64,000 nucleotides of DNA. Origin: Eledone cirrhosa (taxonomy: Eukaryota). The notes beneath the pieces were generated by a model. The model made no database searches. It was not told where the DNA came from and saw only the letters and a program-made list of their open reading frames with translations. The stretch is taken from assembly GCA_964016885.1 (NCBI GenBank), contig OZ024740.1, positions 131,812,001 to 131,876,000 of the forward strand, read 5' to 3'. The translations under genes were made by a program, and so were the position numbers. The first letter of the stretch is position 1. Each line of letters opens with the position of its first letter. This document shows, piece by piece, positions 55,127 through 55,382 of this stretch.

Positions 55127-55382
55127 GTAGGATGTGAGTTTTATTGTAGTACAATAAAGCAAATATATATATGTATATATGTATATATATATGTATATAT
55201 GTATATATATATATATATATATATTTATATATATATATATATATATATATGTTTTTTAATCTTCATATCATGTCTTCCTGGTTTATCTGATGAAAACACA
55301 AATATTATTGCATGATGATATTTGTTTTTGAAATGCGCATAATAAAATACATGGAACTCTTTTAACCATCTTTTGTTCTTAT
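55127..55382 (+). mobile_element. Miniature derivative carrying both ends of the PLE at 37061-39180, separated by (TA)n
   Basis: 55127-55162 matches the reverse complement of 39145-39180; 55251-55382 matches the reverse complement of 37061-37192. Confidence 0.85.
55282..55346 (+). ncRNA. Type I hammerhead ribozyme, intact core
   Basis: tttat-CTGATGA-aaacacaaatattatt(gcat)gatgatatttgttttt-GAAA-tgcgca-TA-ataaa. Confidence 0.88.

Follow-up and report, generated by a model that had tools for sequence, protein, structure and literature searches.

The window analysed here is a 64,000-nucleotide stretch of Eledone cirrhosa DNA, to which all positions refer. A 256-base element (55127-55382) lies on its plus strand between two (TA)n tracts, the left one (55106-55126, preceded by (TC)n) representing the target microsatellite and the right one extending from 55380 to 55522. 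The element begins with a 36-nt leader (55127-55162), continues through an 88-nt imperfect (TA)n spacer (55163-55250) and ends with the 5'-truncated 3' end of a Penelope-like element (PLE; 55251-55379). BLAST of both unique parts against the window showed that the leader is the reverse complement of 39145-39180, with 35 of 36 positions identical, and that 55251-55382 is the reverse complement of 37061-37192 (128/132). These are the two ends of a longer copy of the same family on the minus strand (37061-39180, hereafter the parent), and their order and orientation are identical in the two copies. The same search found no further copy of the leader or of the 3' piece in the window. The arrangement described in the initial annotation, both PLE termini with (TA)n in the middle, thus holds for the small element; the 36-nt leader, the spacer of about 90 nt and the intact hammerhead core that it listed also stand, while the 132 nt given for the 3' part include 2-3 nt of the TA flank, which leaves a unique part of 129-130 nt. 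The junction of the small copy with its 3' piece falls at parent position 37192/3.

The leader, which is the 5' terminus of the family, contains a 10-bp hairpin with an A/C-rich 3' arm (55138-55160, plus strand, -8.1 kcal/mol), and this stability was matched by 9 of 1000 dinucleotide shuffles for the small element and by 4 of 1000 for the parent copy. The spacer has a TA purity of 0.89 with four TGT interruptions, within the range of the 27 TA arrays of at least 40 nt present in the window (0.87-1.00), and its composition suggests that it probably derives from target DNA or from filler repeat. Another possible source, simple expansion of the AT within the ATG that adjoins the leader, was considered and rejected by eye, being off by one base. 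We also noted a splice-donor-like GTGAGT in the leader (55135-55140) and a pyrimidine-rich tract closing the 3' end (55357-55379); introns in PLE 5' UTRs are already known (PMC8557442).

A predicted minimal type I hammerhead motif occupies 55282-55346 on the plus strand, with all core letters present (CUGAUGA at 55287, GAAA at 55330 and an AUA triplet) and a predicted cut after 55341. Its sequence combines the conserved core of this type with stems I to III, of which stem I has 5 bp, stem II is long and stem III has 2 bp with a palindromic GCGC loop. Minimum free energy folding of the monomer formed stem II alone (z -0.53); the motif is of the minimal, dimer-dependent kind known from animal PLEs (PMC4209133). 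Rfam gave no match in the window at the gathering score, and the 12 matches obtained for 55100-56300 at E≤10 included no hammerhead family, consisting of TA-driven miRNA-type and similar ones.

The parent, flanked by (TA)n on both sides, reads on the minus strand as leader, ORF remnant, 3' UTR and hammerhead end, where the small element reads as leader, (TA)n and hammerhead end. The ORF (37875-39149) had no Pfam match; 17 homologues were found, nine of which were aligned with it and with a second ORF from the window (alignment A1). According to this alignment, the ORF is 5'-truncated and starts in the reverse transcriptase (RT) thumb, and it continues through a CxCx5C linker, with C221, C223 and C229 invariant, into a C-terminal GIY-YIG domain. 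Translation and alignment place no CCHH between GIY and YIG, and show CxxC and CxH motifs adjacent to the conserved E and N. The RWK and DKT motifs of the N-terminal RT were found in homologues P0001, P0009, P0014 and P0017, in a region absent from the truncated parent. Judged from sequence, these motifs place the family in the (TA)n-targeting Hydra clade, whose members share with the parent the CxCx5C linker, the absence of CCHH, the CxxC and CxH motifs, the C-terminal GIY-YIG, the (TA)n target and a hammerhead near the 3' end; the description of the clade gives these motifs and (TA)n insertion, and includes one family without a pLTR that nevertheless has a fixed end (PMC8557442). An ATG following the leader was considered as the start of the ORF and found to be unsupported. 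Its frame is stopped in a variant from run X4 (contigs of organism A), and no Hydra N-terminal motif occurs within the 30 letters visible after it.

Four of 12 sequencing runs were mapped to the parent at likeness 85, namely contigs from organism A (X1 and X4), contigs from organism B (X5) and raw RAD reads of organism A from another study (X10). Loose read ends beyond both parent termini were (TA)n. Past 39145, leader-bearing records continued into a related sequence that is not the ORF (1445 reads in X10, two contigs in X4 and one in X5), and past 39147, ORF-bearing contigs inspected by eye continued into the expected RT sequence of a natural ORF. Because the continuations at 39145 and 39147 differ, the leader forms a distinct segment of the element. 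The parent, in turn, is a fusion product in which the leader (39145-39180) is joined to the truncated ORF (37875-39147) with a 3-nt overlap, loose read ends being present at both positions. No leader-like stretch that could be a source of mis-mapping was found in the parent body, the best local match being 10 nt. At position 37161 nearly all records disagree with the parent and match the small element, which means that the small element was not literally derived from the parent copy.

The mapped runs contained at least 15 distinct direct junctions between leader and 3' end with no TA between them, joining leader pieces of 18-41 nt to 3' pieces of 34-164 nt. Among the joints listed (15 of 31 in the main table and 12 of 25 in a further one), 12 were same-strand joints linking 37210-37226 to 39145-39163, and 11 of these 12 started from 37222-37226 (CATATG). 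The joints overlapped by 0-4 nt, and seven of the 12 same-strand ones by 1-4 nt. Further pairs listed were 37096 to 39159, 37147 to 39162 and 37198 to 39158. An opposite-strand joint, 37059/39145, was supported by 1141 reads from nine starts in X10 and by one contig in X5, and the remaining two of the 15 were internal indels. All long-range joints among those listed reach the leader. Most joints came from X1, possibly the window's own sample, and 11 of 12 had sides of fewer than 30 letters at likeness 85; support in X10 consisted of 98 reads sharing one start, 22 reads and a single read, and no same-strand joint among those listed came from X4 or X5. The listed joints likewise included none with a TA spacer, which the short contigs could not span, none joining a 3' end to a leader on the same strand, as predicted for a tandem junction, and no joint or loose end at 37192-37193, the junction of the small copy.

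Since these direct junctions lack TA, the coupling of leader and 3' end is independent of a shared TA preference. The initial annotation had named as fatal to its reading that the two ends occur independently across the genome and meet no more often than such a preference would predict; the at least 15 junctions instead lend support to its suggestion that the element is a minimal integration product. Depth in the 3' bin was 32.7, 87.1, 19.4 and 7.5 times that of the adjacent ORF bin in the four runs, and depth in the leader bin 5.9, 23.8, 3.0 and 6.0 times, ratios which are not copy numbers. The leader and the 3' piece likely mark where reverse transcription starts and stops, and the 3' end of the leader, which lay at 18-63 nt in the reads, is broader than the published start sites.

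A tail of 30-40 bp at either end is a described feature of PLE insertions (Craig et al. 2021, PMC8557442); it spans the interval from one RT start site to another, and the RT initiates in an AC-rich stem-loop that shares no homology with the primer (Frangieh et al. 2024, PMC11167929). The leader resembles this tail in length, with 36 nt in both window copies and 18-63 nt in reads. The initial annotation had overlooked the published tail as well as the parent's own build of leader and truncated body. The exact leader pattern gave no match in the metagenome contigs scanned. From metagenome contigs we took relatives at 79 loci, which derive from the best 80 of 350 matches and were picked for ORF content, some families contributing several loci. 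Their tandem junctions follow the layout hammerhead, short TA motif, GCTY..RAGCWC hairpin, second TA motif, second hairpin, start codon. The hairpin pattern was found after 54 of 95 hammerhead-like cores, some of which are loose matches or lie at contig ends, and 109 times on the element strand vs 31 on the other.

A TA run was present within 230 nt of 24 hammerhead-like cores in the 79 loci. It started 35-66 nt after the core in nine of them, with no hairpin before it, 100-124 nt after the core in 12, with a hairpin between in 11 of the 12, and 79-80 nt after the core in three. In the inverted pairs of L053 and L056, one arm stops at the first of these sites and the other at the second. The two preferred ends are consistent with a pair of RT start sites that enclose the tail (PMC11167929). 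As a separate observation, Hydra-clade families have in common a conserved pair of GCTY..RAGCWC hairpins, located about 30-80 and 100-142 nt downstream of the core, and insertions in relatives stop immediately ahead of either of them; the pair was seen between hammerhead and start codon in L002, L009, L011, L021, L023, L024, L030-L032, L045 and L051, and also in L061, L062, L064, L065, L070 and L073. These paired hairpins are likely RT start signals.

The window element ends 45 nt after its core, corresponding to the first site, and its leader hairpin would start about 56-59 nt after the core, the first module of the relatives spanning 30-80 nt. A two-arm weight matrix of the relatives' hairpin did not recognise the leader, which scored -11.0 and -14.6 (rank 8% and 18%), and an alignment of 39 hairpin modules with MAFFT had a 5' arm too poor for a covariance model. 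The leader is likely the tail of its family by position, with a negative result in the weight-matrix test of its sequence; unlike most Hydra relatives it has no GCTC..GAGCAC hairpin, as would befit a divergent family. Among the 79 loci there was no direct-orientation tail on a truncated body, 13 of the 75 tail matches not being behind a hammerhead and none of these being of that kind. At the 5' end of L044 (270-300) lies a tail piece of about 31 nt in inverted orientation, and a single array in L064 combines a short hammerhead end with nine TA units and a 5' start.

We consider it probable that 55127-55382 is a single abortive insertion of a Hydra-clade PLE into (TA)n, during which reverse transcription likely began twice. 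The GIY-YIG nuclease would nick the (TA)n target, and the RT would prime at the short TA motif of the 3' end (site B) and drop off early, after 130 nt in the small copy and most often after about 160 nt. A second, internal initiation on the RNA may then occur at the leader hairpin or immediately behind it (site A), giving a second cDNA that would run back to the 5' terminus only and whose terminal TA could anneal to the target. Where the first cDNA serves with its 3' end as primer for this second start, the product would be a direct fusion with a 0-4 nt overlap, as in the parent and in the read junctions; where another 3' end of the target TA tract does so, or where repeat DNA is copied in between, a (TA)n spacer would result, as in the small copy. 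In either case the new copy would be dead on arrival. A bolder form of this proposal is that every insertion of these elements arises from two same-strand RT starts, truncated copies being capped by their own 5' hairpin, that hammerhead stubs of about 200 nt with both termini are mass-produced and sometimes self-propagating, and that the clade-conserved GCTC..GAGCAC hairpin pair is the start signal; taken as a whole we regard this extension as tentative and rather doubtful.

The main competitor to a single abortive insertion is that one TA hot spot received two separate insertions of the same family at different times, a tail on its own and a truncated 3' end on its own. The spacer resembles an ordinary microsatellite, both ends are abundant in the reads, and single arrays can be shared by pieces of different families, as in L072 and L009. 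The window also shows such crowding, with four TA-flanked inserts in 55127-56270. One of them, at 55683-56270 on the plus strand and 300 nt from the small element, belongs to a sister family, and consists of a homologous leader of about 40 nt, 50 nt of further sequence, an inverted 3' end (55774-55951) and a sense 3' end with a hammerhead. Its leader score of 37 was the third highest of 284 TA exits, with none of 5000 shuffles as good, and its 3' end scored 91 vs 65±5.6 for shuffles, none of 1000 being as good. This sister insertion, whose facing arrangement is that of the opposite-strand joint 37059/39145, likewise has its leader upstream, in favour of a single event. Both window leaders sit upstream of a 3' end of their own family, which speaks against independent events. 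By a rough, post hoc estimate, a solo leader would by chance reach this TA array, on the upstream side and with matching strand, in 0.3-2.4% of cases (the lower value being 1/92 arrays x 1/4, and the higher one weighting by the TA bases of the cluster). Furthermore, the direct fusions couple both ends in single events, and we find two separate insertions unlikely.

It is quite improbable, in our view, that the small element is instead a copy of a non-autonomous, re-mobilised mini-element resembling the SIDEs of R2, one that kept both termini because they are needed in cis. Such elements do arise from fused 5' and 3' ends (PMC3414825), and some of our data would suit them: the junction hot spot at 37222-37226 could mirror a minimal 3' length, four junction contigs had a depth of 57-160 vs 5-25 for long pieces of the same run, and L040 and L043, from another Hydra family, have a 485-nt internal deletion in common within different flanks. 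However, at least 15 different junctions were seen rather than one or few, the junction of the small copy was absent among those listed, and a repeated junction is explicable by microhomology at the hot spot. The parent has the same build with its junction in the middle of the ORF, and the small unit is not tandem, having a single hammerhead of the dimer-dependent type. This variation between copies counts against the idea, raised in the initial annotation, of a non-autonomous ribozyme-bearing derivative. Its hope that the element would show which sequences are needed in cis is doubtful too, given that the one PLE tested in vitro needs at minimum a template that takes in 172 nt of the ORF and so extends past the start sites at 111-118 (PMC11167929).

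Very unlikely is a normal longer insertion whose middle was removed afterwards during repair of a DNA break, (TA)n having filled the join or expanded there. The left break would have to recur inside the leading 18-41 nt of the element, and in all four runs the ORF is much less frequent than either terminus. In favour of such a loss, many copies of Penelope in Adineta have been inactivated by microhomology-mediated deletions (PMC3846280), the CATATG hot spot resembles an AT-rich nuclease site and seven of 12 joints have overlaps of 1-4 nt.

Several parts of this picture are already in print, including the tail at either end of PLE insertions, the targeting of (TA)n by Hydra elements and single minimal hammerheads derived from truncated PLEs. 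In the passages covered, published tails extend the 3' end of a pLTR that is either direct or inverted; for Adineta the pLTR concerned is inverted (Arkhipova et al. 2013, PMC3846280). The leader described here instead stands alone upstream, directly oriented and either fused to a truncated body or separated from it by a spacer, and varies in length. The available parts of PMC8557442 make no mention of stubs with both termini for Hydra-clade PLEs, and those of PMC13282606 added nothing on structure. Among the texts and passages covered, we found no published description of a direct-orientation upstream tail or of the paired hairpins. What we report is likely a new twist on the known tail, its upstream position in direct orientation, and not a separate mini-element.

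The small element resembles the R2 SIDEs (Eickbush & Eickbush 2012, PMC3414825) in joining the 5' and 3' ends of an autonomous element, with the internal part missing and a ribozyme kept, and a template jump has been proposed as one route to SIDEs (PMC3414825). SIDEs nevertheless form a small number of old families that replicate and carry a 5' HDV-like ribozyme (PMC3414825), in contrast to the 3' hammerhead and the many junctions seen here. Like the non-LTR retrozymes (Li et al. 2026, 10.64898/2026.07.22.740005), it is short, non-coding, derived from PLE termini and equipped with a minimal type I hammerhead; unlike them it is not tandem, has one ribozyme and contains (TA)n. Membership of that group was rejected, as it calls for tandem units with at least two complete hammerheads and the small element is a single unit with a single core. 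It comes nearer to the single minimal hammerheads ascribed to truncated PLEs (Cervera & de la Pena 2014, PMC4209133).

Taken alone, the locus is an ordinary dead stub, and its interest lies in the pattern of the family. The pattern bears on how PLE insertions are attached upstream and on the purpose of the tail, where the in vitro study leaves the later steps unvalidated (PMC11167929); in the PLE used there, hammerhead cleavage was dispensable. A family that leaves a direct-orientation upstream tail and many natural junctions offers a large record of upstream attachment, and the two insertion ends of the relatives, together with the paired hairpins, give exact sites to mutate. Attachment of this kind would also provide a plain route from PLEs to SINE-like or retrozyme-like derivatives.

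The window contains further inserts and repeats. Two TA-flanked inserts, 55523-55602 (80 nt) and 29523-29590 (68 nt), are alike in their first 36 nt (33/36) and in their last few bases and differ in the middle, a decayed hammerhead-like core being present in 55523-55602; they are possibly both-termini stubs of another family. An inverted pair of another PLE (58489-58510 and 58511-60685) gave a GIY-YIG match at E 0.0014, below the cut-off, and only one of its arms has a 22-nt extension, which resembles a classical tail. On the minus strand, a hammerhead-like end (47528-47745), a 193-nt interrupted TA array (47322-47514) and a truncated Hydra-type ORF (46512-47321) lie in one orientation, and a related end occurs at 13737-13919. 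Inverted or partly tandem repeats adjoin TA arrays at 54429-54876, 56523-56719, 60798-60936, 24052-24382, 27365-28183 and 4408-5178, several of them with CTGANGA cores. The TA-flanked fragments 14859-16580, 28733-29487 and 56832-57743 are copies, 81-96% alike, of what we take to be a LINE-type RT element, and a degenerate 71-bp tandem array occupies 48965-49910.
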